62,507 nucleotides of DNA, filler included, from Candidatus Zapsychrus exili (GCA_030765585.1; 7 parts of 7 records of this genome joined end to end with filler, not necessarily neighbours in it); one strand, 5' to 3'. Shown: positions 1 through 62,507, counted from the first letter of the whole stretch. Notes: generated by a model from the sequence alone, not told the origin. Program-made: numbers and translations.

Positions 1-31
1 ATTCTGTCAAGTGTTTTTTTAGGAGAAAAAA

Positions 32-235: not shown

Positions 236-266
236 GAAGCCTGTTATGAGAAGGGTAGTTTAACGT

Positions 267-2792
267 ATGGCAAGAGAAGCAAAAGCACGAATACGAATAA
301 ACAAATATCTTGAAGATACCGGATGGCGGTTTTTCGATACAGACTCCGGATCTGCCAATATTTGCTTGGAGACGAATGTTAAAATTACTGAACAGGCGCT
401 CAACGATCTTGGTGAGGATTTTGAAAAGACAAAAAATGGTTTTACTGATTATATCCTTTTAGATTATAAGGGCTTTCCTTTTGTAGTTTTAGAGGCAAAA
501 AAAGAGGATAAAGATCCTTTAGCTGGCAAAGAGCAGGCTCGTAAATATGCAAAGAACCTTAATGTTCGTTTTGTGATCTTGTCCAATGGTAACCTTCATT
601 ATTTCTGGGATATTGAAACAGGCAACCCGCATGTTATTACTACCTTTCCTACATGTGAATCATTGACTTTTAAGAAATCTTTTAAGCCTAATACGGATAA
701 TTTGGTTCGTGAATATGTTACTTCAGATTATATTGCTATTACTCAAAAACCAGATTATAAGAGTGACCCCAATTGGATGAACGAGGATAGACGGAATGAT
801 TTTATTAGTGATAATAGCCTTAAATTTTTAAGAGACTATCAAATAAATGCCATTAAATCTTTGCAAGATGCTGTGAAAGAAAACAAAAGCCGCTTTTTAT
901 TTGAAATGGCAACAGGTACAGGAAAAACTCTTGTTGCAGCAGGTGTTATCAAATTATTTTTAAGGACCGGAAACGCCAAGCGGGTGCTTTTCTTGGTTGA
1001 CAGATTAGAGTTAGAGGATCAGGCTTGGAAGAATTTTGTAAAATACCTTAAGTACGACTATAAATCAGTTATCTACAAAGAAAATCGCGGCGATTGGAAA
1101 AAAGCTGAAATTGTAGTCTCCACTGTTCAGTCGTTTCTTTTTAATAACAAGTACAAGGATTTATTCTCTCCGACTGACTTTGATTTGGTTATATCAGATG
1201 AGGCGCATAGATCAATAGGTGGTAATAGCCGGGCGGTTTTTGAATATTTTACCGGATATAAATTAGGGCTTACAGCAACACCTAAAGATTATCTGAAAAA
1301 AGTAGATGAAAAAAAATTAGCAGAAAGAGACCCTCGCAAATTAGAACGACGCCAGTTATTGGATACCTATAAGACTTTTGGATGCGAGGCGAGCAGTCCA
1401 ACATTTAGGTATACTCTTTTGAATGGAGTAAAAGACGGTTATCTTGTAAATCCAATTGTTGTAGATGCCCGAACAGACATAACGACAGAATTACTTTCAG
1501 AAATGGGCTACTCTGTATTGATAGAAAACGAAGAAGGCAAAGAAGAAGAAAAGATATACTTTCAAAAGGATTTTGAACGAAAATTTTTCTCGGAAAAAAC
1601 GAACGGGACATTATGCAAGACATTTTTAGAGAAAGCCCTAAAAGATCCTTTAACAGGTGAGATCGGTAAAAGCATTATTTTTTGTATTAGCCAAAATCAT
1701 GCTTCCAAAATCACACAGATACTTAATGTATTTGCACATAAAATTTATCCTGGTAAATATAATTCTGATTTTGCGGTGCAGGCAACATCTTTTATTGATA
1801 ACGCACAGCAGATGACAATTAATTTTTCAAATAATAATCTAAATGGGCATACGACCTTTAAGAGCGGCTATAATTCCAGTAAGACCCGCGTTTGTGTCAC
1901 CGTAGGAATGATGACAACGGGTTATGATTGTGAAGATATTTTAAATTTATGCTTAATGCGGCCTATCTTTTCCCCTCAAAATTTTATTCAGATGAAAGGT
2001 AGGGGAACCAGGAAATATGACTTTGTTTATAGAGAAAGAGACGACTCGGGAAAGGTGGAAAAATATATAGTCAAGAAGAAGCGCTTTAAACTTTTTGATT
2101 TTTTCGCCAATTGCGAATATTTTGAAGAAAAATTTAATTATGACGAAGTGATAGAATTGCCTCCAGAAACAGGGGGAGGTCCGGGACCTGATCCACCCCC
2201 GCCCCCACCGGTAGACGAATATGAGAGTACCAGGTTGGATCCCTTAAAGGAATTTGCCGAAACATCTATCGGTCTTGAAGGTATGAAAATTGACCGGAAG
2301 TTTTTTGAAAAGTTTGAAGAGGTTATTAAGGGTAATGAATATATTAAAGACAAAATTTATGAAGGCAAGTACGAAGAGGCAGAGAGTTACATCAAAAAAG
2401 AAGTTTTTGATAAGCCGGAAGAATATTTTAACCTTGAAAAGCTCCGCAAATCCGTTAAACTTGACCGCCGCTTAGGCTTAAGAGAAATATTAGAAAAAAT
2501 ATTTGGTCAGATTAAGAAATTTAAAACAAAGGATGATCTGCTTGAGGAAGAGATAGAAAAATTTATTTCTCTTTATCATCCCGAGAATAAGTTTATTCAT
2601 ATTATACGTCAATTCATGAAGGCATATATTTTAGAAACCGAGTTACGGGAAATTTTTAATTCTAAGGAATATGGCCGGCTTGAGACTAACCCAGGTTTTA
2701 CAATGATGGACCTAAAAGAATTAGATGGTTGGAAAGATCCCGTTGTTGAGTACATAAAAGACTATGTGCTGTTAAATACTTTTGTAACTTAA
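267..2792 (+). CDS. hsdR: Type I restriction enzyme R subunit (EcoAI-like)
   Basis: Nuclease motif TDYIL...VLEAKK, Walker A MATGTGKT, DEAH box, LTATP, QMKGRGTR. Confidence 0.9.
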   Translation: MAREAKARIRINKYLEDTGWRFFDTDSGSANICLETNVKITEQALNDLGEDFEKTKNGFTDYILLDYKGFPFVVLEAKKEDKDPLAGKEQARKYAKNLNVRFVILSNGNLHYFWDIETGNPHVITTFPTCESLTFKKSFKPNTDNLVREYVTSDYIAITQKPDYKSDPNWMNEDRRNDFISDNSLKFLRDYQINAIKSLQDAVKENKSRFLFEMATGTGKTLVAAGVIKLFLRTGNAKRVLFLVDRLELEDQAWKNFVKYLKYDYKSVIYKENRGDWKKAEIVVSTVQSFLFNNKYKDLFSPTDFDLVISDEAHRSIGGNSRAVFEYFTGYKLGLTATPKDYLKKVDEKKLAERDPRKLERRQLLDTYKTFGCEASSPTFRYTLLNGVKDGYLVNPIVVDARTDITTELLSEMGYSVLIENEEGKEEEKIYFQKDFERKFFSEKTNGTLCKTFLEKALKDPLTGEIGKSIIFCISQNHASKITQILNVFAHKIYPGKYNSDFAVQATSFIDNAQQMTINFSNNNLNGHTTFKSGYNSSKTRVCVTVGMMTTGYDCEDILNLCLMRPIFSPQNFIQMKGRGTRKYDFVYRERDDSGKVEKYIVKKKRFKLFDFFANCEYFEEKFNYDEVIELPPETGGGPGPDPPPPPPVDEYESTRLDPLKEFAETSIGLEGMKIDRKFFEKFEEVIKGNEYIKDKIYEGKYEEAESYIKKEVFDKPEEYFNLEKLRKSVKLDRRLGLREILEKIFGQIKKFKTKDDLLEEEIEKFISLYHPENKFIHIIRQFMKAYILETELREIFNSKEYGRLETNPGFTMMDLKELDGWKDPVVEYIKDYVLLNTFVT

Positions 2793-2806
2793 AGGAAAAT
2801 AAAAAT

Positions 2807-5317
2807 ATGTTAACGAGTGGAACAAAAAGACGGATTGATACGGCAAGGGATATTCTTGTAGGTAAATTACCCGATCCGAAATCACAGGTTGAGCAAATCA
2901 CGATTGCCTTAATCTATAAATTTATGGACGATATGGATAAGCAATCGGAGGAGCTTGGTGGTAAGGTAAAATTTTTTACCGGTGAATATTCAAAATATGC
3001 CTGGAGTAAAATATTTGATCCTCATGTGAGTGGTCATGAGCTTGTTGGCTTGTATGGGGAAGCTATCCAGCGGATGAACCATAATCCAAATATCCCGCAA
3101 TTATTCAGAAATATTTTTAAAAATGCCTATTTGCCGTATCGTGATCCCGAAACCTTAAAGAGTTTCCTTAAAGCTATCGGAGAGTTTGAGTATGATCATA
3201 GTGAAAAATTAGGTGATGCCTTTGAATATCTGCTTTCTGTGATGGGTTCACAGGGAGATGCAGGTCAGTTTAGGACACCAAGACATATCATTGATTTTAT
3301 GGTGAAGGTAGTTGATCCAGGGAAGAATGAAACTATTCTTGATCCTGCCTGTGGCACAGCTGGATTCCTGATTTCTTCTTATAAACACATCTTAGAGAAA
3401 AATAAAAAAGACGGCCGGATACATTTAGCACCAGCTCAAAAGAAGAGACTCATTGAAAACTTTTCAGGCTATGATATTTCACCGGATATGGTCAGGTTGT
3501 CATTAGCTAATATGTACTTGCATGAGTTTAAAAGTCCTAAGATCTATGAGTATGATACATTAACTTCCGAGGAAAAATGGCAGGAGGTTTTTGATGTTAT
3601 ATTGGCAAATCCGCCGTTCATGAGTCCAAAAGGGGGAATAAGGCCACATAAACGGTTTAGCGTGCAGGCAAAACGTTCTGAGGTGCTTTTTGTTGACTAT
3701 ATCAGTGAGCACTTAAATCCTAACGGCCGAGCGGGAATTATTGTTCCTGAAGGTATTATTTTTCAGTCAGGCACTGCTTATAAGAAACTGAGAAAGATGT
3801 TAGTTGACCACTCACTTTATGCTGTTGTTTCTTTGCCCAAGGGAGTATTCAATCCTTACTCTGGAGTTAAGACATCAATATTGATGTTAGATAAAAATCT
3901 GTCAAAAAAGACAGATAAGATTTTATTTGTAAATATCAACAATGATGGGTTTGGCTTAGGCGCCCAGAGACGAAAGATAAAAGAGAACGATCTGCCATTG
4001 GCTTTAGGGGTAATCACGAGATACAAACAGAGTATTATTGAAAATAAAGACTTTGAATTCAATGCTGATGAGGCAAAGCTTGCTTTTTTGGTTGAGCAAA
4101 CAAAAATCGCAGAAAGCAAGGATTATAGCCTAGATGGAGATGGATACAAAGAAGCTTTTGTTTATACAGGGAAATGGGATTTTGTGGAGTTAGGAGAGGT
4201 TTGCGAGATTTTAAATGGATATGCTTTTAAAAGTGGAAATTATGTTAGGGATGGCATTAGAGTTATTAGAATCACAAATGTTCAAAAAGGTATAATTGTT
4301 GATGAAAATCCAAAATTCTATCCCTTGGATACAAACGATGCCATTGAGCAATACAAGCTTGTTAAAAATGATTTATTGATGTCATTGACAGGAAATGTTG
4401 GTCGCGTTGGCTTATTGCCAGATTATCTTTTACCCGCTGCATTGAATCAGCGTGTGGCTTGCTTGAAAAGCGATAAAGGAAAAATAAACAAAAGATTTTT
4501 GTTTTATTTGTTAAATCAAGATATTTTTGAGCAAAGTTGTATTGCTTCTTCAAAAGGAATCGCCCAGAAAAATTTAAGTACAGTTTGGTTATCAAAATTT
4601 AAAATTCCTCTCCCGCCGCTTGAAGTTCAAGAACAGATTAGTACCGAGTTAGACAATTATCAAAAAATCATTGATGGCGCGCGTCAGGTGGTTGAAAACT
4701 ACAAGTCACATATAGATATTGATTCGGAATGGCCCACCATAAAGTTGGGCGATGTTTGTAATTTTAAACGAGGCCCTTTTGGCGGAAGTTTAAAAAAAGA
4801 GATTTTCGTTGAAACGGGGTATTGTGTTTATGAGCAGCGTCATGCGATTTCTGGAAGTTTTGAACAAGTGAGATATTTTATTAATAGTGAGAAATTCAAG
4901 GAGATGAAGCAATTTGAAGTTAAGCCCGGAGATCTGATCATGAGCTGTTCTGGTACTATGGGCAAGGTTGCTATAGCTCCGGATAATACTAAGAGAGGCA
5001 TTATAAATCAAGCACTTTTAAGATTAACCGCATTGGAAAAGTTAGATAAACAGTATTTGAAATATATTCTAGAAAGCTCTATTTTCCAGAAAGCGCTACA
5101 GGATAATGCGTATGGCGCAGCTATAAAAAATGTTGCTTCGGTTGGCGCGTTAAAAGATATAAAAATAGCGCTACCTAACCTAAAAATTCAAAAGGATATT
5201 GTAAAACGGCTGGACAATGAACAGAAATTAATTGACTCTAGTGGTCAACTTATTAAATCTTTTGAGCAAAAAATTAAAAACCTCATCACGAAAGTTTGGG
5301 GTGAGAAGTTAGTATGA
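2807..5317 (+). CDS. Type I RM N6-adenine methyltransferase fused to specificity subunit (HsdM-HsdS)
   Basis: GQFRTPR, DPACGTAGFL, NPPF, then two TRD/conserved-region repeats (W..VELGEVC...IPLPPLEVQ; WPTIKLGDVC...IALPNLKIQ). Confidence 0.9.
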   Translation: MLTSGTKRRIDTARDILVGKLPDPKSQVEQITIALIYKFMDDMDKQSEELGGKVKFFTGEYSKYAWSKIFDPHVSGHELVGLYGEAIQRMNHNPNIPQLFRNIFKNAYLPYRDPETLKSFLKAIGEFEYDHSEKLGDAFEYLLSVMGSQGDAGQFRTPRHIIDFMVKVVDPGKNETILDPACGTAGFLISSYKHILEKNKKDGRIHLAPAQKKRLIENFSGYDISPDMVRLSLANMYLHEFKSPKIYEYDTLTSEEKWQEVFDVILANPPFMSPKGGIRPHKRFSVQAKRSEVLFVDYISEHLNPNGRAGIIVPEGIIFQSGTAYKKLRKMLVDHSLYAVVSLPKGVFNPYSGVKTSILMLDKNLSKKTDKILFVNINNDGFGLGAQRRKIKENDLPLALGVITRYKQSIIENKDFEFNADEAKLAFLVEQTKIAESKDYSLDGDGYKEAFVYTGKWDFVELGEVCEILNGYAFKSGNYVRDGIRVIRITNVQKGIIVDENPKFYPLDTNDAIEQYKLVKNDLLMSLTGNVGRVGLLPDYLLPAALNQRVACLKSDKGKINKRFLFYLLNQDIFEQSCIASSKGIAQKNLSTVWLSKFKIPLPPLEVQEQISTELDNYQKIIDGARQVVENYKSHIDIDSEWPTIKLGDVCNFKRGPFGGSLKKEIFVETGYCVYEQRHAISGSFEQVRYFINSEKFKEMKQFEVKPGDLIMSCSGTMGKVAIAPDNTKRGIINQALLRLTALEKLDKQYLKYILESSIFQKALQDNAYGAAIKNVASVGALKDIKIALPNLKIQKDIVKRLDNEQKLIDSSGQLIKSFEQKIKNLITKVWGEKLV

Positions 5318-6000
5318 TTAAAACGCAAACACCAACCTATGCGGGTCATCGGCAGAGGATAAAGCATAAATATAAGAAATCAGGCGTAGGCGGCTGGTTG
5401 GATTATGAGGTTTTGGAGTTGGTTCTTTCTTATGCTGTGGCGCGGAAAGACACAAAACCGATCGCCAAAGAATTAGTAACTCGGTTTAAAACAATCAATG
5501 GAGTTTTAGACGCTGACGGCAAAGAGCTAAAAGCTATATCAGGCATCTCAGAACATACAACCTTGTTTTTGAAATTGTTAAAAGATATCGCCATTCTTTA
5601 TTTAGAGAATGGTTTACACAATAAAGATTTGCTTTCATCTCCCGAAGTAGTTTTTGATTACCTAAAGGCTTCTCTGAAGGGATGCGTGGATGAGGAATTC
5701 AAAGCCCTCTTTTTAAATGGCAGAAATCAGCTGATAGCGATTGAGACACTTCAGACAGGTATTGTTAGCAGAGCGGTAATTTATCCAAGGAAGATAGTTG
5801 AGAGGGCACTGCATCATCATACTGTTGGTGTTATTATCGCGCATAACCATCCCGCGGGCACATTAACACCTTCAAAGGAAGATTGCGCGGTAACAAAATC
5901 TATTAAGGATGCGCTCAAGACAGTTGAGATTAGATTATTGGATCATATCGTCATTGGCGGTAATGGCTACTTTAGTTTTAATACAAAAGGCCTTTTGTAG
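5314..6000 (+). CDS. radC: RadC-family JAB domain protein
   Basis: GHRQR N-terminus, YPRKI, AHNHPAG...PSKED, LLDHIVIG. Confidence 0.92.
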   Translation: MIKTQTPTYAGHRQRIKHKYKKSGVGGWLDYEVLELVLSYAVARKDTKPIAKELVTRFKTINGVLDADGKELKAISGISEHTTLFLKLLKDIAILYLENGLHNKDLLSSPEVVFDYLKASLKGCVDEEFKALFLNGRNQLIAIETLQTGIVSRAVIYPRKIVERALHHHTVGVIIAHNHPAGTLTPSKEDCAVTKSIKDALKTVEIRLLDHIVIGGNGYFSFNTKGLL

Positions 6001-6137
6001 TGGACGATTTATTTGATGAATTTCTGGGATACGACTTTACTATGGGCGAGGACATGGTGAAATATCCACATTACATAGAAGTTGTCGAGCGATATATTGA
6101 AAAATATATTTAATTACATAATTTAATGAGGAGAAAT

Positions 6138-7340
6138 ATGGCGAACGAAATATTTCATGATCCACAAAAGGAAATATGCGAAGTAAGGAACCAGCTTTCC
6201 TATGTAAAAAGGATTGGCTTCTTATTGGGTGCAGGTACTTCTAAGGCATTAGATATATCTGATCTTTCTGGTTTGACAAAAAAAGTAAGAGAAAAAATAG
6301 AGCAAAAATATAAAGATATTTTGAAAAACGTTGAAACGGGTTTGCAGGTAAAAGAGGATGACGATCCGTTGACAATCGAACAGATTCTCGATCAAGTGCG
6401 ATTGATAAGGCAGCTTGCAAATGATAAACCGGATAGGAACTTTGAAAAAGTGAGCGGGAAAAATGCTGCTGACTTAGACATGGAAATCTGCAATCGTATT
6501 TATGAAATTATAATAGATGAGGAGAAAGACGTTGATCTGTCCCATACAAAGAAATTTGTGACATGGCTAAATTGGTTAAGCAGAGATTATTCAAAAGAAA
6601 TTTTTACTACTAATTATGATTTGATCATAGAAAAAGCGTTGGAAAGTTTACATATTCCACATTTCGATGGATTTGTAGGTGCTCATCAGCCATTTTTCTT
6701 TTCTGAAAGCCTCGAGAGCAAAAATACATATGATATACCTCCAATCTCGTGGATAAGACTTTGGAAGCTCCATGGTTCAATAAACTGGTTTTGGAAGAAA
6801 AATAATAGTGGAAAATCCAATAAAGTTGTTCGTCTTGGAGTTGAATCTAAAAAACTTAATAATGAGAATGAATTAGTGATTTATCCTTCAAAAGAGAAAT
6901 ATGAAACTTCCAGAAAACAACCATTTATTGCCTATTTCGATAGGCTTAGGAACTTTCTCCAAGACGGGGAAGGAATTTTTGTTATAAATGGATATTCTTT
7001 TTCTGATGAGCATATTAATGCTGTGATTATTGATAGCTTAAAGCAAAATAACAGGCTTCATATTATTGGATTCTTCTTTTCCGATGATGACTTAGCGAAG
7101 ATATGTGAGCTCGGCACGTTCTTAAACTTCACTGCAATAGGTCCTCGAAAGGCAATAATTAGAGGATTCTTAGGGGAGTGGAAAAAAGCAAAATTAGATC
7201 ATTTGTTGGATAATTTTTGGGATGTGGGAGGCAATCGCCTAAAGATAGGGGATTTTAAAGAAATGGTGAAATTTCTTATGGCAATATCTGGTAAGCAGGA
7301 AAAGATCGAAGAAGTTATGAAGGAAGCAAATGATAAATGA
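6138..7340 (+). CDS. SIR2-like (SIR2_2) NADase of Sir2-HerA defence system
   Basis: LLGAGTS, FTTNYD, KLHGSINW, GYSFSDEHIN; RBS GAGGAG before ATG 6138. Confidence 0.88.
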   Translation: MANEIFHDPQKEICEVRNQLSYVKRIGFLLGAGTSKALDISDLSGLTKKVREKIEQKYKDILKNVETGLQVKEDDDPLTIEQILDQVRLIRQLANDKPDRNFEKVSGKNAADLDMEICNRIYEIIIDEEKDVDLSHTKKFVTWLNWLSRDYSKEIFTTNYDLIIEKALESLHIPHFDGFVGAHQPFFFSESLESKNTYDIPPISWIRLWKLHGSINWFWKKNNSGKSNKVVRLGVESKKLNNENELVIYPSKEKYETSRKQPFIAYFDRLRNFLQDGEGIFVINGYSFSDEHINAVIIDSLKQNNRLHIIGFFFSDDDLAKICELGTFLNFTAIGPRKAIIRGFLGEWKKAKLDHLLDNFWDVGGNRLKIGDFKEMVKFLMAISGKQEKIEEVMKEANDK

Positions 7341-9147
7341 AATTACTTATTTAGGAAAAGTAATCAATGTTAATAGCTCGAGTGTTGAAATTGAGATATC
7401 TCGAGATATTCCTTCAGCGACTCCGATTATTAACGGACGTTTATATAAATTAGGCCAAATTGGAACATTTGTAAAAATCCCTGTAGGCGGATTGACTTTG
7501 TTCGGAATTGTTTCTTCAGTAAGTAATACTCCTTCTTTAGTTGAAGTTAATAAATATGAGCCGGACTATGGCTCCAGATTTTTGCAAGTCCAACTTATTG
7601 GAGAACAATTGGGCGGAGACTCTTTTAAAAAAGGAGTCGGGACTTATCCTACAATTAATGATGAAGTGCATATAGTAACAGAGGATGATTTGAAGATCAT
7701 CTACGGCGATCACGATGATGGAGTTATTGAAATAGGAAAACATTCTTCTTCAGAAAATCTTCCTGTTTATTTGGATTTACATAATCTCATACTGAGGCAT
7801 AGTGCCATTCTCGGATCTACGGGTAGTGGAAAATCGAACACGACTGCGCATATACTTAAGCGTATTTTAAGCGATTACCCTGGTTCAAGGATTGTTTTAG
7901 TTGATACGCATGGGGAATATGCTTCTGCATTCGGGAATGGTGCAAAAGTTTTTAAGATCAACGATGCTAAGAACCCCCTATATATTCCTTTTTGGGCTAT
8001 GTCATTTGATGAGCTTTCATTTTTTTTAGTTGGTAGGCTATCTGGAAGCGAGAGGCCAGAAGATAAAAAATTACGCGAAGCTATTGTGAAACTCAAAAAG
8101 GAAAATGCATCGAAGTTAAAGGCAGGAAAAGTTAATACGGATTTTGTTACCGCAGATTCCCCTATTCCTTTCGATATACGAAAAATGTGGTATGACTTTA
8201 ATCGAGAAATTAATGCAACTTATTTTGAAGCGGCGGCGGATAAACAAACAAAAGATAAGGAAGAACTAGAAAAAGAAGGAGATCCTCAAAAATTAATTCC
8301 AGCAAAATTTAAGCCATATTCTATGGGTGCTGTTGCCCCTTTTAAGGCGAAAGAACAGACGATGTACTCGTATGAAATGAAAATACTGTCAAGGTTGAAG
8401 GATACGCGTTTTGATTTTATGTTTAATCCCGGAGATTTTTACGACATGACAAGCAAACACGATATTGATCAGTTACTTAGGGATTGGATAGACCACGAAC
8501 AGCGGCTCACGATCTTGGATTTAAACGAAGTGCCTTTCGAGCTGATTGATATATCTGTTGGATTAATAACAAGATTGATTTTTGATTCAATGTATTGGGG
8601 TAGGCATGAAGAATATACAGGGAGAAATCGAGCGATATTGATGGTTTTTGAAGAGGCACATTCCTATTTACCAAAAAACGAAAGCAGCTCACACATATAT
8701 GGATATGCGAGGAAGTCCGTTGAAAGGATATATAAAGAGGGGCGGAAGTTTGGCGTTGGAGCAATGGTTGTTACTCAGAGACCCTCTGAAATTTCTGAAA
8801 CGATTCTTGCTCAAGTGGGCACTTTTATTGCCCTTCGACTTACTAATAGTAGTGATAAGAACAACGTCCAGTCAGCTTCACCCAATAACATGAACAGCCT
8901 GATGGAGCTTTTACCATCCTTGAGAGTTGGGGAGGCAATAATTGTTGGGGAGGCAATAAATATTCCATCGCGAGTTCGAATTGAGCTTGTGGAACCAAGG
9001 CCAAGCAGCAATGATCCCAAATTGGTCGAAGGATGGATGGAGAAGTTTGCTGTGAATGTAGCGCATTACAAGAATATTGTTAGGGCATGGAGAGAACAAA
9101 AACATTTAAAAAAAAGGGGGATAGGCTATGGAAATGATACTAGTTAA
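7330..9147 (+). CDS. HerA/DUF87 ATPase
   Basis: HAS-barrel-like N-terminus, GSTGSGKS, EEAH, KEGRKFG, TQRPSE; overlaps SIR2 stop. Confidence 0.9.
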   Translation: MINEITYLGKVINVNSSSVEIEISRDIPSATPIINGRLYKLGQIGTFVKIPVGGLTLFGIVSSVSNTPSLVEVNKYEPDYGSRFLQVQLIGEQLGGDSFKKGVGTYPTINDEVHIVTEDDLKIIYGDHDDGVIEIGKHSSSENLPVYLDLHNLILRHSAILGSTGSGKSNTTAHILKRILSDYPGSRIVLVDTHGEYASAFGNGAKVFKINDAKNPLYIPFWAMSFDELSFFLVGRLSGSERPEDKKLREAIVKLKKENASKLKAGKVNTDFVTADSPIPFDIRKMWYDFNREINATYFEAAADKQTKDKEELEKEGDPQKLIPAKFKPYSMGAVAPFKAKEQTMYSYEMKILSRLKDTRFDFMFNPGDFYDMTSKHDIDQLLRDWIDHEQRLTILDLNEVPFELIDISVGLITRLIFDSMYWGRHEEYTGRNRAILMVFEEAHSYLPKNESSSHIYGYARKSVERIYKEGRKFGVGAMVVTQRPSEISETILAQVGTFIALRLTNSSDKNNVQSASPNNMNSLMELLPSLRVGEAIIVGEAINIPSRVRIELVEPRPSSNDPKLVEGWMEKFAVNVAHYKNIVRAWREQKHLKKRGIGYGNDTS

Positions 9148-9340
9148 TTCTTCAAATCTGGCGGCTATAGGGTATGATTCGGATTCTGCAGCGTTGTGTA
9201 TAGAATTTAAAGATGGTTCAGCTTATGAATATTTTGATGTGCCACAACATGAATATGATGGTTTGATGTCAGCTGATTCGCATGGTACATATGCTCATCA
9301 AAATATTTATAAGAAATATCGGCAAAATAAAATCCGATAA
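9128..9340 (+). CDS. KTSC domain protein
   Basis: SSNLAAIGYD...IEFKDG..YEYFDVP...LMSADSHG signature. Confidence 0.88.
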   Translation: MEMILVNSSNLAAIGYDSDSAALCIEFKDGSAYEYFDVPQHEYDGLMSADSHGTYAHQNIYKKYRQNKIR

Positions 9341-9348
9341 AAGGAGAT

Positions 9349-10404
9349 GTGATGTCCTTTATAAATTTAAATCAGAAGCTTAATCGTGTGGAAATAAAAG
9401 ATTTTGAGTTGTCGAACGAGGTAGTCTTTAATTACTTCAATAATCTTTCAGCAAATGAGAGGGATGAGAAACTTATTCGAGCAATTTATATAGGGGTGTT
9501 GGCATTAATGGAAGATAGAATCTCTGCATTCCTCGCAAAGACTACGAATGAGCTAGGGACGGAGTTGGAAAGCTTGAAGATGATTTTTGAAATGAAAAAA
9601 GAGTTGTTTTACAAGACAACAATCAAAGGGTTTGTTGCTGAAGAGCAAGTAGCGGAGTTTTTAAATAATTATTTCGTTGCAAAAAAAATTAACGACAAAG
9701 CAGTATTAATAGGTAATGTTACAGGAGTTTTACCGAAAAATAAAACTGGAGATATTATCTGTGAATTAAATGGCAATCCCGATTTAAGGATTGCGATTGA
9801 ATGTAAATTTGATAAAAGCATTAAACTTGGTAGTATCGATTCAAAAGATATTTTCACAAAGAAAATGGACACTGCTTGGAGCCAATTGCTGGAGGCTCAA
9901 GCCAATAGAGATTCTAAAGTTGGCATAATTGTTTTTGATGTATCGTTGGTTGATAACAGCATCCTGAAATCTTATGAAAATGTTGGTTATATCAATGGTA
10001 TTGGATTTGTCGCAGTTATTAATTCTCAGGCAGGTGATTATTCTAACCTTGCGATTGCGTATATGCTGGCAAGGGATATAGCTTTAAATACCAAAGATGT
10101 TGAATTAGACGCAACATTGCTAGCTATCATTGTTAGCCGAATCATTAAGGATATTAATGATGTTCTAACGGTTAAGAAGTTTGTTGAGAATAATATAGCC
10201 AATAATAAAGAAATCCTTAAACAGTTAGAGAAAAGTATTATGATGATGGAATTTAATCAAGAATATCTAACCAAGTTTCTCGAGGAAGGCAAACTGAATA
10301 AGAAGGATATGTTGGATTTTTATTCTGGGGAAAAAGTTAAAGAGAAATATAGGCCATTGGAAAAAGATATTGTGAAAATAGGGGACGGTTCTATTTTAAA
10401 GTAA
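9349..10404 (+). CDS. Hypothetical protein with putative PD-(D/E)xK nuclease core and helical regions
   Basis: E...TGDII...IAIECK motif; last codons (GDGSILK*) lie inside the repeat at 10381. Confidence 0.55.
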   Translation: MMSFINLNQKLNRVEIKDFELSNEVVFNYFNNLSANERDEKLIRAIYIGVLALMEDRISAFLAKTTNELGTELESLKMIFEMKKELFYKTTIKGFVAEEQVAEFLNNYFVAKKINDKAVLIGNVTGVLPKNKTGDIICELNGNPDLRIAIECKFDKSIKLGSIDSKDIFTKKMDTAWSQLLEAQANRDSKVGIIVFDVSLVDNSILKSYENVGYINGIGFVAVINSQAGDYSNLAIAYMLARDIALNTKDVELDATLLAIIVSRIIKDINDVLTVKKFVENNIANNKEILKQLEKSIMMMEFNQEYLTKFLEEGKLNKKDMLDFYSGEKVKEKYRPLEKDIVKIGDGSILK

Positions 10405-10421
10405 TTATATATTGTGTCCCC
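10381..10421 (+). repeat. Cassette-boundary element type A
   Basis: GGGGACGGTTCTATTTTAAAGTAATTATATATTGTGTCCCC; terminal GGGGAC/GTCCCC inverted repeat. Confidence 0.9.
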
Positions 10422-10441
10422 AGAATTTAGGATAACTAAAT

Positions 10442-11257: not shown

Positions 11258-11285
11258 TCCCAACAAAAAATAGTAAAGGAAAAGG

Positions 11286-11304
11286 GGGGACGGTTCTATT
11301 TTAA
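11286..11304 (+). repeat. Type A element, left half
   Basis: GGGGACGGTTCTATTTTAA exact core; a CCTGTCCCC right-half-like motif follows the next gene at 12135-12143. Confidence 0.85.
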
Positions 11305-11360
11305 GGGAAAAGAAGTCAGACACCTTTTTTATTGATAATAAAAAATTGGTGAATTGGTGA

Positions 11361-12110: not shown

Positions 12111-12323
12111 GGGGTTATTCTTAATAAATGGGTGCCTGTCCCCTTTTAATATTTGTACTTATTATGGACGAAATGAAGGAACTAAATATAGATATAGGGA
12201 GAAGAAAATAAGAGAGTTAGATTAGAAAAATACAAAGTCCACTGGCTCTTTTAACTTAGAAGAGATTATCTTCTCTGTTGTAGGGGAACAATAAGAAAGA
12301 TAAGAAAAAAAGGAATAATATAG

Positions 12324-13505: not shown

Positions 13506-13527
13506 TAATTTAAATAGAGAAGTAATT

Positions 13528-13619
13528 GAGGACTGGTTGTAATTTAAAGTAATTAAGCATTGCGATCGAAGTAATAAAGGGGACGGTTCTATTTTAAAAC
13601 AATTAAGTGTTGTGTCCCC
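13528..13619 (+). repeat. Two tandem type A elements (degenerate 13528-13571; full 13579-13619)
   Basis: GAGGACTGGTTGTAATTTAAAGTAATTAAGCATTGCGATCGAAG then GGGGACGGTTCTATTTTAAAACAATTAAGTGTTGTGTCCCC. Confidence 0.88.
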
Positions 13620-13655
13620 GGATTTCCCATATACGAATAATCACAGGAGGAGAAA

Positions 13656-14438
13656 ATGGAAGTTTATGAACGAAAAGATATATCAGAAATAGTGCTAGAG
13701 GATAAAATTAGACAATGCCCTGAATTAATAGAAGAGGGTCTAAAGTTTGTGGACAGACAGAAGAAAACGCCAAGAGGACCTTTGGATTTACTATTAGTTG
13801 ATTCTAAAATGGCCTTAATTGTAGCTGAATTGAAGATCGTTGAAGATGATAACATGTTGATGCAAGCATTAGATTATTATGACTATATAGCAAATAATAT
13901 CGATACGCTTGCACGTATATACAAACAGAGTAATATTGATCCAACACAAACCCCTAGATTAATGCTTATCGCACCGTCTTTTTCTCATTTACTCATTAAT
14001 CGATGTAAATGGATAACGGAAGATATTCAAATTAGTTTGTATGCTTTTCAATATATTACATTTAACCAAGGCGAGAAAGAAACTACTGTATATATACCTG
14101 TAGAAATTCAGCCACCAGTTTCGATCGAAAAAGAACCAGCTACTATTGACAAACATATAAGCTATATTATACCTAATGCGATAAAAAAGTTGGCTAAACA
14201 AATATTAGATGAGATTCAAAGTTGGGATAAAGCTAAAATCTCTATTGATAGCAAGCAATGGGGTGCATCGATTAAGGTTAGCGGTAGCGTTATCGCATAC
14301 TGGGAACCACGACGTAATTTCATACGTATATCAACCTACGATAAAGATAATAAATGGCAAAGTTCCAATATAAGCACAGAAGAACAAAACAGGCAAATTA
14401 TTGACATGGTTAAAAATTATTACACTTCATTATTGTAG
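13656..14438 (+). CDS. NucS/DUF91-like PD-(D/E)xK nuclease with C-terminal DUF5655-like domain
   Basis: LEDKI...LDLLLVD...VAELK...QALDY...LIAPSF. Confidence 0.7.
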   Translation: MEVYERKDISEIVLEDKIRQCPELIEEGLKFVDRQKKTPRGPLDLLLVDSKMALIVAELKIVEDDNMLMQALDYYDYIANNIDTLARIYKQSNIDPTQTPRLMLIAPSFSHLLINRCKWITEDIQISLYAFQYITFNQGEKETTVYIPVEIQPPVSIEKEPATIDKHISYIIPNAIKKLAKQILDEIQSWDKAKISIDSKQWGASIKVSGSVIAYWEPRRNFIRISTYDKDNKWQSSNISTEEQNRQIIDMVKNYYTSLL

Positions 14439-14488
14439 TATAAATAATCGGGTAGGGAAGGATACATAACTGAGGGTTAAACATAAAA

Positions 14489-15073
14489 ATGGTAAACAAT
14501 TTTCTAGATAAGAAATATGTAGTTATTAGCGTAATGGGACCTCATGCCGGTGAATCCGAAGGAGAAATATTTAAACGTAAGATTGGAGATGCAAAAAATA
14601 TCGGTATAACTTTTTGGCTTATGCGCTCGCGGCAAGCAAAACCCTCTCTCGTACAACGTATTTGCAAAGAAGCAAGGGAAAGAAATAAAAATGTTGTTGC
14701 CTTATTCATTGAAGCCTCTTCAACAGGAGGAGCTATGCCGACGAGCTCTGCAAATTCTGCAACATATTATTCAGCAGATAGAAAATATTGGAAGAATCTA
14801 CCAAAAGGATTAAGCCCTGTTACTGGAAAAATTGATAAAGGAGCATATGCGTTAACTTTTGATTTATTAAATTTGCATAACGGTATGATTGATTTGTGGA
14901 ATTATGCTGACTTTTTTAATCAGGATAGCCCGATACGAATTTTTCAGGGAGCCTCAACGCTATGTGCTATCAAAAAAGATATGTCTGCTCATGATAATAA
15001 AATTAAATCTCACAATAGAAAAATAATCGCAATTGGACAACTTTGTAATCCTTATTGTGTTTGGTTGAAATAG
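14489..15073 (+). CDS. Hypothetical protein
   Basis: 194 aa ORF co-oriented in the array; no family recognised. Confidence 0.6.
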   Translation: MVNNFLDKKYVVISVMGPHAGESEGEIFKRKIGDAKNIGITFWLMRSRQAKPSLVQRICKEARERNKNVVALFIEASSTGGAMPTSSANSATYYSADRKYWKNLPKGLSPVTGKIDKGAYALTFDLLNLHNGMIDLWNYADFFNQDSPIRIFQGASTLCAIKKDMSAHDNKIKSHNRKIIAIGQLCNPYCVWLK

Positions 15074-15111
15074 GATTGTCCATCAATAGTAAAATAGGGA
15101 ACTAGAAAATA

Positions 15112-15150
15112 GGGGGCGGTTCTATTTTAAAGTAATTAAGTATCGTGTCC
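15112..15150 (+). repeat. Type A element
   Basis: GGGGGCGGTTCTATTTTAAAGTAATTAAGTATCGTGTCC. Confidence 0.88.
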
Positions 15151-15181
15151 TTGGGATTTATATGTGAAAGGAGTAATAAAT

Positions 15182-16348
15182 ATGTGCTGTCTTTTTTGTA
15201 AACCGTGGGTATGGATTAAAGAACTGTCAAAAAAGAAAATAATAAAAATACTTTTTTTTATTACTCTTTTATTTATTGTTTGGGTCATTATAAAAACAAA
15301 ATTCAGTGCTATGTATTATTTGTATATAAATAATTTATATATACTTATAGCAGCAACTCTATCTAGCATTATAGCAGTTTTTACGTTTCTCTATGACGGG
15401 AAGAATAATACAAAAAAACACAGAAAGGTTATATGCGGTGCTTCATTGTTTTTGTTGTCTTTTTTTTATGTTTGTTTCCCTTTTTATCTTGTTAGCATGA
15501 AAATACCAGAAATGACAGGCAAAGAAGTTTTTCATCTAATAGATGTGTGTAAGGTGAGTTGCGACGCTTTAAGAAATTTAACACGTTTAAATTATTTGCC
15601 TATTGGACAACCAGTAGATAAATATCATATTACCGGTAATAGTTCTTTTTTTGATGCAACTATATGCTATGCGAAAGGTGATGTATATTATGCGTTAGCT
15701 TTGCAAAAATATAAGGAAGCCACAACAGAACTAAGCAAAAAATATCCGTTAGGTGAAGAAACTAAAAATGATAAAGACTATTGTGAGTACTTTTTTTACA
15801 AAGCATCTATAGAATTAAATTCTGGATTTGTCTACATTAGAAGCAACAATCAAAAAGAAGCAATAAAAGCGCTTAAAGATTCGATAAATAGCACAACTAA
15901 AGTTGCAAATAAATATAATTCTTTATCACTAAAGCAAAAAGAGTATATAACAAGTAAAAATGACAAAATCAAAGAGAGTTTTAAGGGTTTTTCATGGGCG
16001 TATTTTAATTTAGGATTATTATGTTTTGATAGTGTTATTCAAGGAATAGAATTACCAGATGATGCTAAACGAGCAAATGAAGAATCGATAACAGGGGAAG
16101 ATGTTCTTTGGCAGGCAGTACGTTATTGGGGGGATAAGGACGATTTACCTTACTATTGTTTGCTTTATGGGTATAGTAAGCAACTTGATGACGTTAAAGA
16201 TGAGAATAAAGCAACAGATATAGAAAGTAAAATAAAAAAATTAACTATAATTGCCAAGGAAAAACTTGATAAGAAGACATATGAATGTTTTTTAAAAAAA
16301 GCTGAAATGGTATATCCAGAAATAGAGGACGATTCTACTTTAAAGTAA
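15182..16348 (+). CDS. Membrane protein (about 3 TM) with TPR-like helical C-terminus
   Basis: Hydrophobic N-terminal segments, AYFNLG TPR-like motif; ends EDDSTLK* inside a type A element. Confidence 0.6.
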   Translation: MCCLFCKPWVWIKELSKKKIIKILFFITLLFIVWVIIKTKFSAMYYLYINNLYILIAATLSSIIAVFTFLYDGKNNTKKHRKVICGASLFLLSFFYVCFPFYLVSMKIPEMTGKEVFHLIDVCKVSCDALRNLTRLNYLPIGQPVDKYHITGNSSFFDATICYAKGDVYYALALQKYKEATTELSKKYPLGEETKNDKDYCEYFFYKASIELNSGFVYIRSNNQKEAIKALKDSINSTTKVANKYNSLSLKQKEYITSKNDKIKESFKGFSWAYFNLGLLCFDSVIQGIELPDDAKRANEESITGEDVLWQAVRYWGDKDDLPYYCLLYGYSKQLDDVKDENKATDIESKIKKLTIIAKEKLDKKTYECFLKKAEMVYPEIEDDSTLK

Positions 16349-16367
16349 TTAAACATTGCGATTGAAG
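16325..16367 (+). repeat. Type A element (variant)
   Basis: GAGGACGATTCTACTTTAAAGTAATTAAACATTGCGATTGAAG, near copy of 13528-13571. Confidence 0.8.
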
Positions 16368-16434
16368 GAAATCCTGAGTATTTTTGAAGGCGGTTCGCAG
16401 ATTCACTAAATAGCTATGAGAATGGAGATATAGA

Positions 16435-16588
16435 TTGAAATCCAAAATTGGAATTGTTGTCTTTATATTAATCCTTGCTGTAATCGGTGGGGGTTTTTGT
16501 TTTGCTGGGGAATTTTATCCGGCCAGCGTGAGTGATATATCCGATCGGGATTATGAACAGGCCGTTATTGAATTGATTGATAATGCCA
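16435..16588 (+). CDS. Secreted protein, probably phospholipase D/nuclease family (5' part, cut by contig end)
   Basis: Signal peptide then DRDYEQAVIELIDNA, typical of PLD-like N-termini; GGAG RBS plus TTG start. Confidence 0.55.
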
Positions 16589-16688: not shown

Positions 16689-16965
16689 ATTGTGCTTAAC
16701 TTAGGTAATTATATTTTTGAATATAATCATCTTCGTAGACATGGGGGCTTGAACTATGAGACCCCTTTTGATAAACTAAAAAGAGTTACCGAATTAGTGA
16801 GCTAGTACAACAGACCCCCGTCTGTCCCCATTATTGTTAACTACAAGAAGAAAGCGTTTTCTTAAAACATCCCTACTAGTCTTATTATTAAAAGAAATAT
16901 GTTTTATACTTAATATAGGAGAGGGTTATTAGCTATTTACTATAGTTAATAGCTAAGAAAGGAAA

Positions 16966-59514: not shown

Positions 59515-59689
59515 ACCCAACAACAACCGACTCTTCCGCATTATCTATCAATTCAATAACGGCCTCTTCATATTCCCGATCGGATATATCACTCACGCTG
59601 GCCGGATAAAATTCCCCAGCAAAACAAAAACCCCCACCGATTACAGCAAGGATTAATATAAAAACAACTATCCCAATTTTGGATTTCAA
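59515..59689 (-). CDS. Second allele of the PLD-like secreted protein at 16435 (partial)
   Basis: Same N-terminus with about 8 nt substitutions over ~165 bp. Confidence 0.7.
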
Positions 59690-59702
59690 CCTATATCTCC
59701 AT

Positions 59703-59721
59703 GCTTTAAAATAGAACCGTC
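59703..59721 (-). repeat. Type A element core
   Basis: Reverse strand GACGGTTCTATTTTAAAGC directly abutting the anchor-gene leader. Confidence 0.85.
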
Positions 59722-59760
59722 TTTTTTTTACACAAATACTGTAAAATCAAATTAACAAAA

Positions 59761-60690
59761 TTATTTAGCACTAGTTATATATTCATATGACGCTTTAAAC
59801 AAATGCATTAATTTATTAATATCGTAATCCTTGCCTTCGACTTTATATAGCACTTGGTTCCATTGTTCTTCATACCTATAAGGTTTTATGCCTGGAATTT
59901 TTAATTTGTCATTTAACTTTTTTGTCAACTTGAAAAAGATACAGAAGGACTTCGATCCAACCCATGTAATACCAAAAACATTTGGGAATCCATATTTAAA
60001 CCCAACATACCCTTTATTCATTTTTTTATCTAATTTCCATCCCTTTTTCTTAACAAGCTTTTCGATCTTTTGAATCGTATGGAAAAATACTTCTACACTA
60101 TCTTTGTTATAATTTTCCAAATAGAAATTTTTATCATAGCTTTCGCGTCCTTTAGTTATACGCGATCCTTTAGGGCTTTCGGGTTCGAGTTTATTTACAA
60201 AGATAAATTCATTCTTGTCCACTGCAAATTTCTTGATTTCCAAAAGTTCTACTTCATAATTAATTTTATTTATGGTCCTTAATACATTTAACTTGATAGA
60301 TGGTGCTATAATAATTATTTTAACATTCAATGCTTCCCAATTTATGCTAATATCCTCCGGTTTATCTTTACACTCTAACCATAGTGCTTTAATTGAATCC
60401 GGATTGGTTTCTGCCCATAGTGCGTATCTTAAAACCTGTGGTATTATATTCTCATCAACCTTGTAATTTTTCATTTCTATTATTACAACATTGTTTTCCT
60501 TGTCAATTCCTATCATATCAAGAATATCTTTTCCAGAAGAAACTCTTATTTGTCTTTTTAGAATAAAAATATCTCCTAATATTTCCTCAGTTCTATAAAT
60601 ATATGTCTCAAATTCTTCTTCGCTTTTGAAAGGGCTCTCTACGACATTAACCGTTTTGCCATTTACGTTTTTCCAAAATAGATTAGGCAT
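59761..60690 (-). CDS. NucS/DUF91-like PD-(D/E)xK nuclease with C-terminal domain
   Basis: F.SEEEFE...LDMIGID...IIEMK...QVLRYA...IIAP. Confidence 0.72.
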   Translation of the reverse strand: MPNLFWKNVNGKTVNVVESPFKSEEEFETYIYRTEEILGDIFILKRQIRVSSGKDILDMIGIDKENNVVIIEMKNYKVDENIIPQVLRYALWAETNPDSIKALWLECKDKPEDISINWEALNVKIIIIAPSIKLNVLRTINKINYEVELLEIKKFAVDKNEFIFVNKLEPESPKGSRITKGRESYDKNFYLENYNKDSVEVFFHTIQKIEKLVKKKGWKLDKKMNKGYVGFKYGFPNVFGITWVGSKSFCIFFKLTKKLNDKLKIPGIKPYRYEEQWNQVLYKVEGKDYDINKLMHLFKASYEYITSAK

Positions 60691-60726
60691 TTTCTCCTCC
60701 TGTGCTTATTCGTATATGGGAAATCC

Positions 60727-60767
60727 GGGGATACAACACTTAATTGTTTTAAAATAGAACCGTCCCC
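60727..60767 (-). repeat. Type A element
   Basis: Reverse strand GGGGACGGTTCTATTTTAAAACAATTAAGTGTTGTATCCCC, 1 mismatch to 13579-13619. Confidence 0.92.
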
Positions 60768-60826
60768 TTTTTTACAGCGATTTCTTTACATATTATTACT
60801 ATTCTTCCGTCAAATAGTTTCAACAT

Positions 60827-61330
60827 TCAAGGTCTGACCCCGTTATTTATGGCCCTTGCTGCAATAGCAGCATCAATCCAGTCTGCAATATTATCCGCAA
60901 TATCGTTATACGCATCAGATGAATTAGGATTATAGCATTTAACTTTACTAGATAATTTTGCCCCATCGTCGAATGCAAACTGTTCAAAAGGATTTGTCCC
61001 TTTGTTGCAAGTACCATTCCTCGGGCATTTTATATTATGGATATAGATACCGAGCAAGCCCTTGCCATCTTTCCATGCCTTTTTGATTTCATGTTTGACC
61101 CATTTTCTATTAGCTGTTTCTTCTCCGACCAAAACCACAACACAAGAACGATATTTCATGTTATCATCTATCCACTTTTCAACGGCACTATCACCTTTTT
61201 TCTTAATGGATTCCCAATCATTAGTTGAAGCGGGCGTATTTCCTTCAATTACTCCAATATTTCGTATTTGTTGAACACGCATGACATCGTTATTAAAATG
61301 AAAGCTATAGAATATTTGTTTTTTTGCCAT
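60827..61330 (-). CDS. TIR-like DUF1863 (ThsB/MTH538-type) protein
   Basis: IFYSFHF.ND..R.QQIRN...WI...SCVVVLVG..TA.R.WV..EI; GAGGAGG RBS before ATG 61330. Confidence 0.88.
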   Translation of the reverse strand: MAKKQIFYSFHFNNDVMRVQQIRNIGVIEGNTPASTNDWESIKKKGDSAVEKWIDDNMKYRSCVVVLVGEETANRKWVKHEIKKAWKDGKGLLGIYIHNIKCPRNGTCNKGTNPFEQFAFDDGAKLSSKVKCYNPNSSDAYNDIADNIADWIDAAIAARAINNGVRP

Positions 61331-61344
61331 AAATATATCCTCCT

Positions 61345-61791
61345 CTATTTTATAAAATATTTTATTGTGATCTGATAAATAATAATCACTAAGACAATTA
61401 CTGCTGGAATTCCATAAAAAACTCTTAGAGTAATTGACCACATAACCTTTGACCTTGAATCAACTTGATCTTTAAAACGATGAGGATTTAAATCGTATAA
61501 ATGCTCGAATTTCTCTTCAGGCCTTACTTTGAGAACCCACTCATACATTTTTCTATACATCTTTTCCGTTTGAAGAAAGAAAGCATCCAGATACCAGAAA
61601 GCTAACAACGGTATAAAAATAACGAGACACAAATATACAGGGTCAATATTCTTTTCAGTTAACGCAAGCACAACTGTGATAATTGTCAACGCCCATCCTT
61701 TTATCAGAAAAGAATTATGAGCCATTCTATTGATGCAACCTTGAATCAAATCGATTTCTTTATGAATAATTTCTATATTTTTATTAGGCAT
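61345..61791 (-). CDS. Small membrane protein, TIR-associated type
   Basis: IQGCINRMAHNSFLIKGW...FWYLDAFFL..E..YR..Y, with 3 hydrophobic segments. Confidence 0.75.
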   Translation of the reverse strand: MPNKNIEIIHKEIDLIQGCINRMAHNSFLIKGWALTIITVVLALTEKNIDPVYLCLVIFIPLLAFWYLDAFFLQTEKMYRKMYEWVLKVRPEEKFEHLYDLNPHRFKDQVDSRSKVMWSITLRVFYGIPAVIVLVIIIYQITIKYFIK

Positions 61792-61809
61792 AAATGTCCG
61801 CCCTCCTTT

Positions 61810-62507
61810 CTACTCAACGCCCAACGCCTTAAACACCGCATCTATTGGGTCTGCATAAAATCCGCTTTGAAACTTTGACAAAAGCTCACCTGGAACTGTT
61901 TGGAAATCCTTAACGCTGCTTGAAGGAATAAGAACCCTCTTTGCCCCTGCATCAAGGGCAACCCTAAGCGATTCTGCGAGATTTTCCACAGGGATAATAT
62001 TTCCACCTAAACTCATACTTCCCAAGACAACTATCTGAGATTGAACAGGCTTTTGCATTAATGATGAAGCCAGCGCGACGACTGCCGCTAATGTTAGTGC
62101 CTCAGCAAAACCTGAATTATGCAGTTCAACTACATGTATATGGTAATTGTGATCTCCAGCTTTAGGCTTAACACTGACTCTTGTTGCGTTAGCCTTAAAA
62201 TAATCAGAAGCTATTCGAAGGCACTCTTTAGGTGTATTTCCAGATCCCACACCCGAAAACCGTGTCGTTCCATTGCCAGGCGTCATTTGCGTTTCAATTC
62301 GGTAAAGCCCCAAATGTCCGTTGCTGCCGCGAGAAACTGTATGAATAATGCCCGGATTCATAGGGCCATCTGGAATAAGGGTTCCTCCCCCTTGCTCGGG
62401 CACTGAGATATATTTTTCTTCATTGGTTTCCTTATCAGCGTAACTAAAATGAACATCATAGAATTCCATTCCACCGATTTTCTTTAACTGCTCTTTTATA
62501 CGACGGC
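61810..62507 (-). CDS. brxL: BrxL-like Lon protease domain (5' truncated)
   Basis: GGMEFYDV.FSY.D...E.Y.SVPEQGGG...G.M.LGG...AGAKRVLIP...FY.DP.DAVFKALGVE. Confidence 0.85.
   Translation of the reverse strand, partial: RRIKEQLKKIGGMEFYDVHFSYADKETNEEKYISVPEQGGGTLIPDGPMNPGIIHTVSRGSNGHLGLYRIETQMTPGNGTTRFSGVGSGNTPKECLRIASDYFKANATRVSVKPKAGDHNYHIHVVELHNSGFAEALTLAAVVALASSLMQKPVQSQIVVLGSMSLGGNIIPVENLAESLRVALDAGAKRVLIPSSSVKDFQTVPGELLSKFQSGFYADPIDAVFKALGVE

Follow-up and report, generated by a model that had tools for sequence, protein, structure and literature searches.

P2 prophages and P4 satellites have hypervariable defence hotspots. A conserved element with such a slot was also the model that a first, sequence-only reading had put forward for the DNA analyzed here, a stretch of 62,507 nucleotides (nt) from the metagenome-assembled genome (MAG) of Candidatus Zapsychrus exili (GCA_030765585.1), hereafter the window; however, no conserved element genes surround a slot here. 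The 62.5-kb window is not one genomic stretch: it joins 7 whole contigs of a 129-contig, 2.04-Mb MAG, with N spacers between them. This report centers on two of these, contig 1 (window 1-16588; MAG contig C102) and contig 7 (59515-62507; C111), which end in the same gene, hereafter the anchor, next to different defence genes, and which carry copies of a short two-part repeat, hereafter the element. Other MAG contigs keep their C-numbers; among the locus labels, L001 is C124 and L007 is C118, while all other L-numbers are public metagenome or genome loci.

Integron cassette arrays and CALINs (attC clusters without an integrase) are known to carry phage-defence cassettes (10.1101/2024.07.02.601719, PMC12614218). 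Set against these systems, the islands studied here are alike in their same-direction single genes or small modules, the short repeat between them, their defence cargo and the half-sites at junctions, but they have no IntI, their repeat is a sequence-conserved one of about 55 nt instead of a structured attC hairpin and sits just upstream of the next start codon, and their hallmark nuclease is without integron counterpart. The core-gene-flanked defence hotspots cDHS1/2 of Pseudomonas aeruginosa (PMC10250203) likewise hold variable defence sets, different in each strain, beside a recognizable conserved flank; unlike that flank, the anchor does not belong to the core genome, with matches in 75 of 401 sampled genomes of the phylum and in none of 54 from the order of the MAG, and it lies at varied chromosomal sites and can be present twice in one island. 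SNIPE is a membrane-bound nuclease that cuts phage DNA during injection (PMC13190303); the likeness lies only in the general idea of an envelope-located nuclease among defence genes. The anchor has a PLD-type domain, and we claim no relation.

Gene-by-gene shuffling of defence islands is poorly understood outside integrons and phage-borne hotspots, and our search of the literature found no description of such islands in Omnitrophota. Our main finding is that the anchor is, in our judgment rather probably, a stand-alone accessory gene that is the hallmark of cassette-like Omnitrophota defence islands, being itself one of the cassettes and often the one nearest the core genome. The islands have a common anatomy and recur, they vary on both sides of the anchor and have spread by gene transfer, and within the MAG the element is restricted to the anchor contigs. 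They are defence islands or hotspots with a cassette grammar, whose rules in the uncultured phylum Omnitrophota are a travelling nuclease gene of the exported type, a two-part repeat between same-direction cassettes and a cargo that is different in every genome. This grammar raises the question of whether the repeat is a recombination site or a regulatory site.

The anchor gene and its changing neighbours

The anchor protein has about 376 residues and consists of an N-terminal membrane or signal helix, an HKD nuclease domain resembling those of Nuc and NucT, and a C-terminal winged-helix-like part. Its PLDc_2 domain matched with E-values of 4e-24 to 3.5e-25 (4e-24 on the 242-residue C124 copy), and the HxK(x)4D motif (H131, K133, D138) is invariant in 39 homologues. 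A profile search against PDB returned Zucchini/MitoPLD (4ggj), Nuc (1byr) and NucT (6ehi) at E-values of 1e-7 to 1e-9. With an AlphaFold model (pLDDT 77.8, helix at residues 2-21), Foldseek retrieved NucT and Nuc at an E-value of 3e-9 and a target TM of 0.70-0.75, solved relatives overall reaching 0.63-0.75. By its motif and its modelled fold, the protein belongs to the single-HKD nucleases of the PLD superfamily (Nuc/NucT/Zucchini type), and nuclease activity is predicted.

Nuc and NucT are exported and Zucchini is membrane-anchored. The anchor protein shares with Nuc of plasmid pKM101, NucT of Helicobacter pylori and Zucchini/MitoPLD the single HKD motif, the fold and the N-terminal hydrophobic helix, but it differs in its approximately 190 extra C-terminal residues, in its defence-island setting, and in being multi-copy and multi-allelic in Omnitrophota. 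These last residues resemble winged-helix modules, for which the leads are weak (an atlas search with the C-terminal half stayed below threshold, with scores of 0.85-0.87). Residues 2-21 are hydrophobic with lysines ahead, and by the positive-inside rule the rest of the protein would face outward, like Nuc and NucT. The anchor protein could be a nuclease of the cell envelope, possibly protective in itself. Separately, a 566-residue open reading frame (ORF) of L040 (3248-4948) has a Tex-like N-terminal part of 321 residues fused in frame to the anchor from about residue 125 (also P0071 and P0072), and an intact anchor lies directly before tex in L078.

The MAG holds three anchor alleles that are 94-98% alike and one paralogue of 48% identity, each joined to different cargo. 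On contig 7 the anchor occupies 59515..59689 on the minus strand, with a TTG start at 59689 and 58 codons before the contig end, and encodes the membrane helix and the beginning of the HKD domain; on contig 1 it occupies 16435..16588 on the plus strand, with 51 codons. The sequence-only reading had taken these for two anchor genes that differ by about 8 substitutions: it is the same TTG-start gene on both contigs, and 8 substitutions are indeed found over 168 aligned bases (16419-16586 against 59705-59538), but both copies are N-terminal stubs. A third near-identical copy, on C124, has 242 codons and runs off the contig start; it is 97.8% identical to that of C102 and 94.2-94.6% to that of C111 (95% over residues 1-58 of the protein). 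Its cargo comprises an S24 peptidase, PDC-S11, PDC-M30, HNH and TIR-like genes, a DisA-type cyclase, DUF4238, a resolvase fragment and a TPR protein. The paralogue, on C118, is full length (381 residues) and lies among other accessory genes, including one for an OLD-like ATPase. The expectation that one conserved gene sits beside different defence cargo was thereby borne out on four MAG contigs, and it extends to dozens of public loci: searching the assembly and related genomes with the anchor gave further copies, each with different neighbours and with no conserved upstream context in the other loci.

At least 230 homologues of about 376 residues were collected, and every organism name given by the sources is Omnitrophica or Omnitrophota, which also assigns the MAG to this phylum. 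Among 401 sampled Omnitrophota genomes, 75 have a match at 1e-30, and 25 of these 75 have at least two; none of the 54 sampled genomes of the MAG's own order has one. No full-length anchor was found in 40 close relatives; the one partial PLD match among them was weak (32% identity across some 100 residues, E-value 8.5e-6). At the anchor, the MAG and L038 are 80% identical, compared with only 43-60% across the neighbouring core block, which points to gene transfer between lineages.

Gene maps with protein clustering were drawn for 48 metagenome loci and 78 loci from species genomes, and the neighbour clusters change from locus to locus on both sides of the anchor. From these we took 98 proteins encoded up to four genes away, one representative per cluster, and searched them with PADLOC at 1e-8. 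Matches were obtained for 25 of the 98, upstream and downstream of the anchor alike, and include restriction-modification (RM) types I and II, PDC-S02/S04/S05/S13/S18, AbiD, PD-T7-4, a CBASS cyclase and Ppl, as well as OLD/Gabija-like ATPases, a pAgo-like protein and RmrA/CapP-like proteins. Many neighbours match no family, and the anchor and the repeat together offer a practical way of finding hitherto unknown defence genes in metagenomes of Omnitrophota.

What the loci have in common at the DNA level is no more than the anchor gene, starting some 40 nt ahead of its start codon and reaching approximately to its stop; the mobile-element backbone that had been proposed was not seen. In each of 33 comparisons, homology to C102 sets in at 16393-16435 (at most 42 nt ahead of the start codon) or within the gene itself, and homology to L015 ends at about 2257-2261, some 15-20 nt before the stop (2276); the identical start coordinate in the L015 comparison partly reflects L015's own junction. 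The ends of BLAST matches are modestly enriched at gene borders and at elements (36% versus 18%, and 3.2% versus 0.75%), but they are dominated by fragmented matches inside the anchor, and we give this enrichment no weight. Nor is there a single hypervariable slot, as cargo varies downstream as well as upstream, and two anchors lie on one contig in each of L038 and L019. We propose that cargo would be exchanged by recombination using the 1.1-kb anchor and the short repeats as common homology.

The anchor often lies at the switch between genes that are common with the MAG and genes that are not, the former - genes shared with this MAG outside its island contigs - being a crude proxy for the core genome. 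In L077, alr (alanine racemase) is followed by the anchor and three genes, including Fic, and then by an ilvB-like (acetolactate-synthase-like) gene, and cargo lies similarly behind the anchor in L084, L089 and L105. It lies in front in L078 (RM, DUF6119, RhuM, anchor, then tex), in L080 and in L086, where the anchor is followed by seven shared genes. A tRNA-Ser, tRNA-Asn or tmRNA gene is present within about 650 nt of the anchor in seven of the loci scanned (L045, L084, L095, L103, L123, L132, L135); in L084 the order is SmpB, tmRNA, anchor, with the anchor start 58 nt after the tmRNA gene. No tRNA or tmRNA link was found for the island contigs of the MAG, and attempts to place the island there were negative: the core block found behind the anchor island in L038, L039, L032, L033 and L084 lies unbroken inside C63; the tmRNA gene of C123 is followed by other genes and then by a repeat-bounded contig end; and a tRNA-Ser(gga) gene 112 nt from the start of C54 adjoins a stretch that matches no known anchor flank, so that neither contig could be linked to the island. 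Among distant anchor homologues (40% identity), the one in L045 is immediately followed by a tRNA-Asn gene (11078-11153), and those in L042 (about 11100-11150) and L051 (about 8330-8380) by what appears to be only the 5' half of that tRNA gene, then by unrelated sequence.

Alleles, strains and assembly breaks

The three near-identical alleles need not represent separate loci. A single chromosomal site in several strains, with C102, C111 and C124 as alternative versions of its island binned into one MAG and with no second locus, is a serious possibility that we place slightly on the doubtful side of even. All three contigs break within the same anchor gene, at most 25 bases apart, and the assembler followed each cargo only 165-190 bases into this common gene. 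The alleles are no closer to each other than to those of other samples (93-97% with L015, L016, L052 and L056), and the rest of the BREX system of C111 is absent from the MAG, in which no other piece of BrxL and no PglZ was found. Moreover, three other contigs (C36, 3702-3793; C117, 34-126; C127, 11985-12077) have a full tRNA-Ser(gct) gene at their end, each beside a different tyrosine integrase, and these ends are a second site at which the MAG holds several alternative island junctions. Against a single site, however, relatives do carry several anchors, as illustrated by the two-anchor contigs and by the 25 of 75 genomes with at least two matches, and the paralogue on C118 is clearly separate. 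The MAG, with a completeness of 96%, also has a marker contamination of only 0.68% and few other near-duplicate contigs.

Public assembled contigs bear on the same question. They come from 20 runs that contain at most 0.39 of the sampled words, and the uncovered parts are uninformative. In the contigs of four runs, the anchor and the element have several times the summed depth of the flanks specific to C124, and at least five different continuations are present on each side of the element. The C111-type joint (depth 11) and an L015-type junction (about 15) are both present, compared with about 3 for the C124-specific flanks; such unequal depths would be expected of strain variants, but they are contig means over short, mostly repeat pieces and cannot rank the parts.

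The way in which the assembly breaks is itself informative. Exact 127-base overlaps are common to many MAG contig ends, a pattern typical of a k=127 assembly graph, which is interrupted at repeats, and other assemblies break in the anchor too, its interior being the start or end of 16 of the 48 metagenome contigs. The most likely reason why contigs 1 and 7 stop in the anchor is that it occurs in several alleles or copies, which a short-read graph is unable to traverse. Composition reveals no outliers: the island contigs have a GC content of 34-35%, versus 34% for the genome, and their tetranucleotide distance is inside the range of the MAG. Users of MAGs should bear in mind that contigs with the same terminal gene may represent alternative strains and not different loci. 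A multi-copy repeat is also common to the start of C103 (window 16689-16815) and the ends of C19, C23, C43, C65, C123 and C125; by translation it is the tail of an rve-type transposase gene, with overlaps of 120-133 bases that are 97-100% identical.

A two-part repeat between cassettes

The element has a consensus of about 55 nt, formed of a left arm ending in GGGGACGGTTCTATTTTAAA and a right arm beginning with GTAATTAAGTATTGTGTCCCCGGAATT. When up to 2 mismatches are allowed, the window contains 7 instances of its core pattern, against an expectation of 0.43, and none of 100 shuffles reached 7. With an nhmmer profile built from nine copies, all 13 matches in the MAG fell on the four anchor contigs (together 2.2% of the genome), and no copy was found in 44 other genomes of the family. 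Anchor loci from other species do contain copies, in one anchor subfamily as in the other. Of the matches in loci, 32 of 34 are intergenic and on the strand of the genes (and of the anchor); a stop codon precedes the element by 0-70 nt, and in most cases the next start follows it at 1-70 nt. Genes in the islands nearly all run in one direction, and the repeat lies between many of these same-direction cassettes.

The anchor has elements on either side. One follows its stop directly in ten loci (L017, L018, L019, L023, L030, L038, L077, L079, L099 and L108), and upstream of it there is a full copy in L023, a right arm in L019, L038 and L079, and a left arm in C111 and L077. On contig 7 the left-arm-only copy is at 59702..59722 on the minus strand (core 59705-59719; profile positions 8-28), and its core is separated by 4 bases from the ribosome-binding leader common to anchor copies, GGAGATATAG (59690..59705, minus), at which homology begins. 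The anchor homology thus follows the element core after these 4 bases, much as first noticed, and the same joint was found in public contigs. The wider claim that the boundary of a variable slot coincides with the repeat stands only in part: the repeat is at the anchor border in several loci, but since it flanks the anchor itself and spaces cassettes generally, it is not the marker of one slot.

The repeat could double as a common module of expression or regulation in front of each cassette. A stronger version holds that it is chiefly such a module (promoter, operator or leader), spread by gene conversion and marking gene starts rather than recombination borders, and we regard this as possible, in a tentative way. 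The constant short distance upstream of the start codons of unrelated genes, always in their direction, speaks for it, as does the leader with a ribosome site that follows the right arm before the anchor in L019, L021, L023, L029, L038 and L054. On the opposite strand of the element, three C102 copies (13591-13618, 10393-10420 and 15124-15151) have a sigma-70-like pair, GGGACA and TAAAAT separated by 16 nt, with AGGACA instead of GGGACA in the third. This pair, however, points away from the genes and would fire back into the preceding one; promoter-like matches are no commoner in the region than in shuffles (28 found versus a mean of 34.7), and no consensus promoter was seen on the forward strand. 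Furthermore, some half-copies lie where no gene starts behind them, as is the case for left arms located after stop codons.

These half-copies have a definite form. In about 9 cases only the left arm is present, ending at profile positions 20-31, and in about 10 only the right arm, which sets in at positions 16-31, mostly 25-28; the element is therefore a two-part one whose arms separate within TTTTAAA|GT. The observation is in keeping with a site-specific, integron-like cassette system without IntI, in which the repeat would be the crossover site, circles would carry one full site, and half-sites would mark old junctions or array ends; overall, we consider such a system unlikely. It would account for the one-direction cassettes with the repeat between them, and for L077, where a left arm lies at the border of core and island, a full copy inside the island and variant copies at the far border. 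On C124, an ORF of 85 residues (1832-2089, minus) contains no more than roughly the N-terminal 45 residues of a serine recombinase (Resolvase) and ends inside a full repeat as if cut off by it. The element with its leader down to the ATG, at C102 13575..13631, is 95-97% identical over 94 nt to a C111 copy, whereas the proteins encoded behind the two are only 23% identical. But no integron integrase was detected: the best TIGR02249 match scores 92 bits against a cut-off of 265, with none on C102, C111, C118 or C124. Neither is any recombinase consistently linked to the arrays, the only one beside an anchor being a large serine recombinase in L095. The element has no stable or shared hairpin (fold z-scores of -1.1 to +1.2 in 6 copies), a GGGGAC...GTCCCC pairing does not hold in every copy, and Rfam gave no match. 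Many cassette borders are devoid of the element, common cassettes often begin exactly at a start codon and not at the repeat, and no circular junction was observed.

Enzymes of the PLD family act through a covalent phosphohistidine, and some of them nick and rejoin DNA. An Omnitrophota-own form of cassette capture, working without any integron integrase, is conceivable, in which defence genes would pass from array to array as single cassettes by crossover of the repeat within TTTTAAA|GT, with the HKD nuclease and its winged-helix domains or an unlinked serine recombinase doing the cutting and joining, although we rate it as quite improbable. The least probable is a conserved mobile element (phage satellite, integrative and conjugative element, or plasmid-like backbone) that has a single hypervariable slot for defence genes, delimited by the repeat: cargo does vary beside a conserved gene, the anchor does spread between lineages, and some loci are beside tRNA or tmRNA genes or, in L095, beside the large serine recombinase, but public loci have already largely refuted it, with nothing beyond the anchor gene conserved on either side, no integrase, replication, conjugation or packaging gene recurring beside the anchor in the loci mapped, and, in a search of 2.9 million viral contigs, only 2 weak, partial PLD matches for the anchor and 0 for the element.

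Several observations weigh against our own reading of the anchor as a stand-alone hallmark gene of cassette-like islands. Most loci have no detectable element: only 15 of the 48 metagenome loci and 11 of the 78 from genomes gave a match. The edge-of-island pattern is clear in only about 11 of 31 loci, on the crude core proxy. For anchors of 77-85% identity, homology that ends at the gene border may mean that the non-coding flanks have diverged, and true breakpoints come only from the alleles of 94-98% identity, which are few. The MAG lacks the last third of the C124-type anchor together with anything beyond it; this leaves room there for a conserved downstream partner, although L015, L040 and others argue against one. 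Finally, the envelope location of the predicted nuclease is read from sequence alone.

Gene content of contigs 7 and 1 and further observations

On the minus strand of contig 7, every part of the order initially described (BrxL, membrane protein, TIR, element, NucS-like gene, element core and the MKSKIGIVV anchor) is present. The contig end cuts a BrxL (Lon-like) gene, of which the C-terminal 231 residues remain (61810..62505; PADLOC BrxL, 1.7e-86). It is followed by a gene for the small membrane protein PDC-M50A (61345..61791; 5.6e-42), the partner of the ThsB-type TIR gene (PDC-M50B/ThsB; 60827..61441). The true start of the TIR gene is probably further in than that of the ORF, because the family match begins at ORF residue 40. 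A full element with both arms (60715..60772; E-value 1.5e-16) then ends 25 nt before the start of a candidate defence gene of 309 residues (59761..60690), which is NucS-like (NucS_C, 1.3e-4) and matches PDC-S18 (1.3e-119).

Contig 1 is read on the plus strand. The genes of the order first given (RM, SIR2-HerA and, further on, element and anchor) are there, but its last full element precedes another gene, and only a degenerate copy is near the anchor. The cargo at 267..9147 consists of a type I restriction (R) subunit, a fused modification-specificity (M-S) subunit, RadC and a SIR2-HerA pair. A full element (10377..10429) lies between two genes without assigned function, and a left-arm-only copy is at 11286..11304. 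A right-arm fragment (13535-13567) stands ahead of the full element with leader at 13575..13631, and another full element (15107..15163) comes before the gene for a membrane/repeat protein of 394 residues (15164-16348). The degenerate copy (16321..16368; 2 mismatches in the core, nhmmer E-value 1e-6) overlaps the stop of this gene, 56 nt ahead of the anchor leader.

The beginning of contig 1 is related to other loci. C37 (4.9 kb) is 81% identical over 3.7 kb to window 23-3693, which holds a small XRE regulator and the type I R gene; upstream of this part, C37 encodes a TIR-like nucleotide-binding protein and a resolvase, the latter truncated at the contig end. The XRE gene (67 residues) also recurs alone with other cargo, at 97% identity in L016 and 80% in L036, and contig 1 begins 31 nt before it.

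Within the defence cargo of C124 (9608-11353, minus), a protein of 581 residues has a DisA-type diadenylate cyclase domain along with DACNG and DACNH sensor domains; no PADLOC model matches it. Rfam scans of the window, C124, C118 and 12 metagenome loci gave nothing at the element, nor at a small reverse-strand segment of 200-450 nt that recurs near anchors, on either side, in nine loci. No tRNA was found in this segment either. Its sites are L007 60-495, L020 698-1049, L022 8037-8506, L029 3806-4061, L031 3533-3786, L032 448-674, L038 9159-9354 and 12998-13211, and L060 85-350. The segment contains two small ORFs that run against the direction of the cassettes, one with a helix-turn-helix and the other of 70-109 residues.

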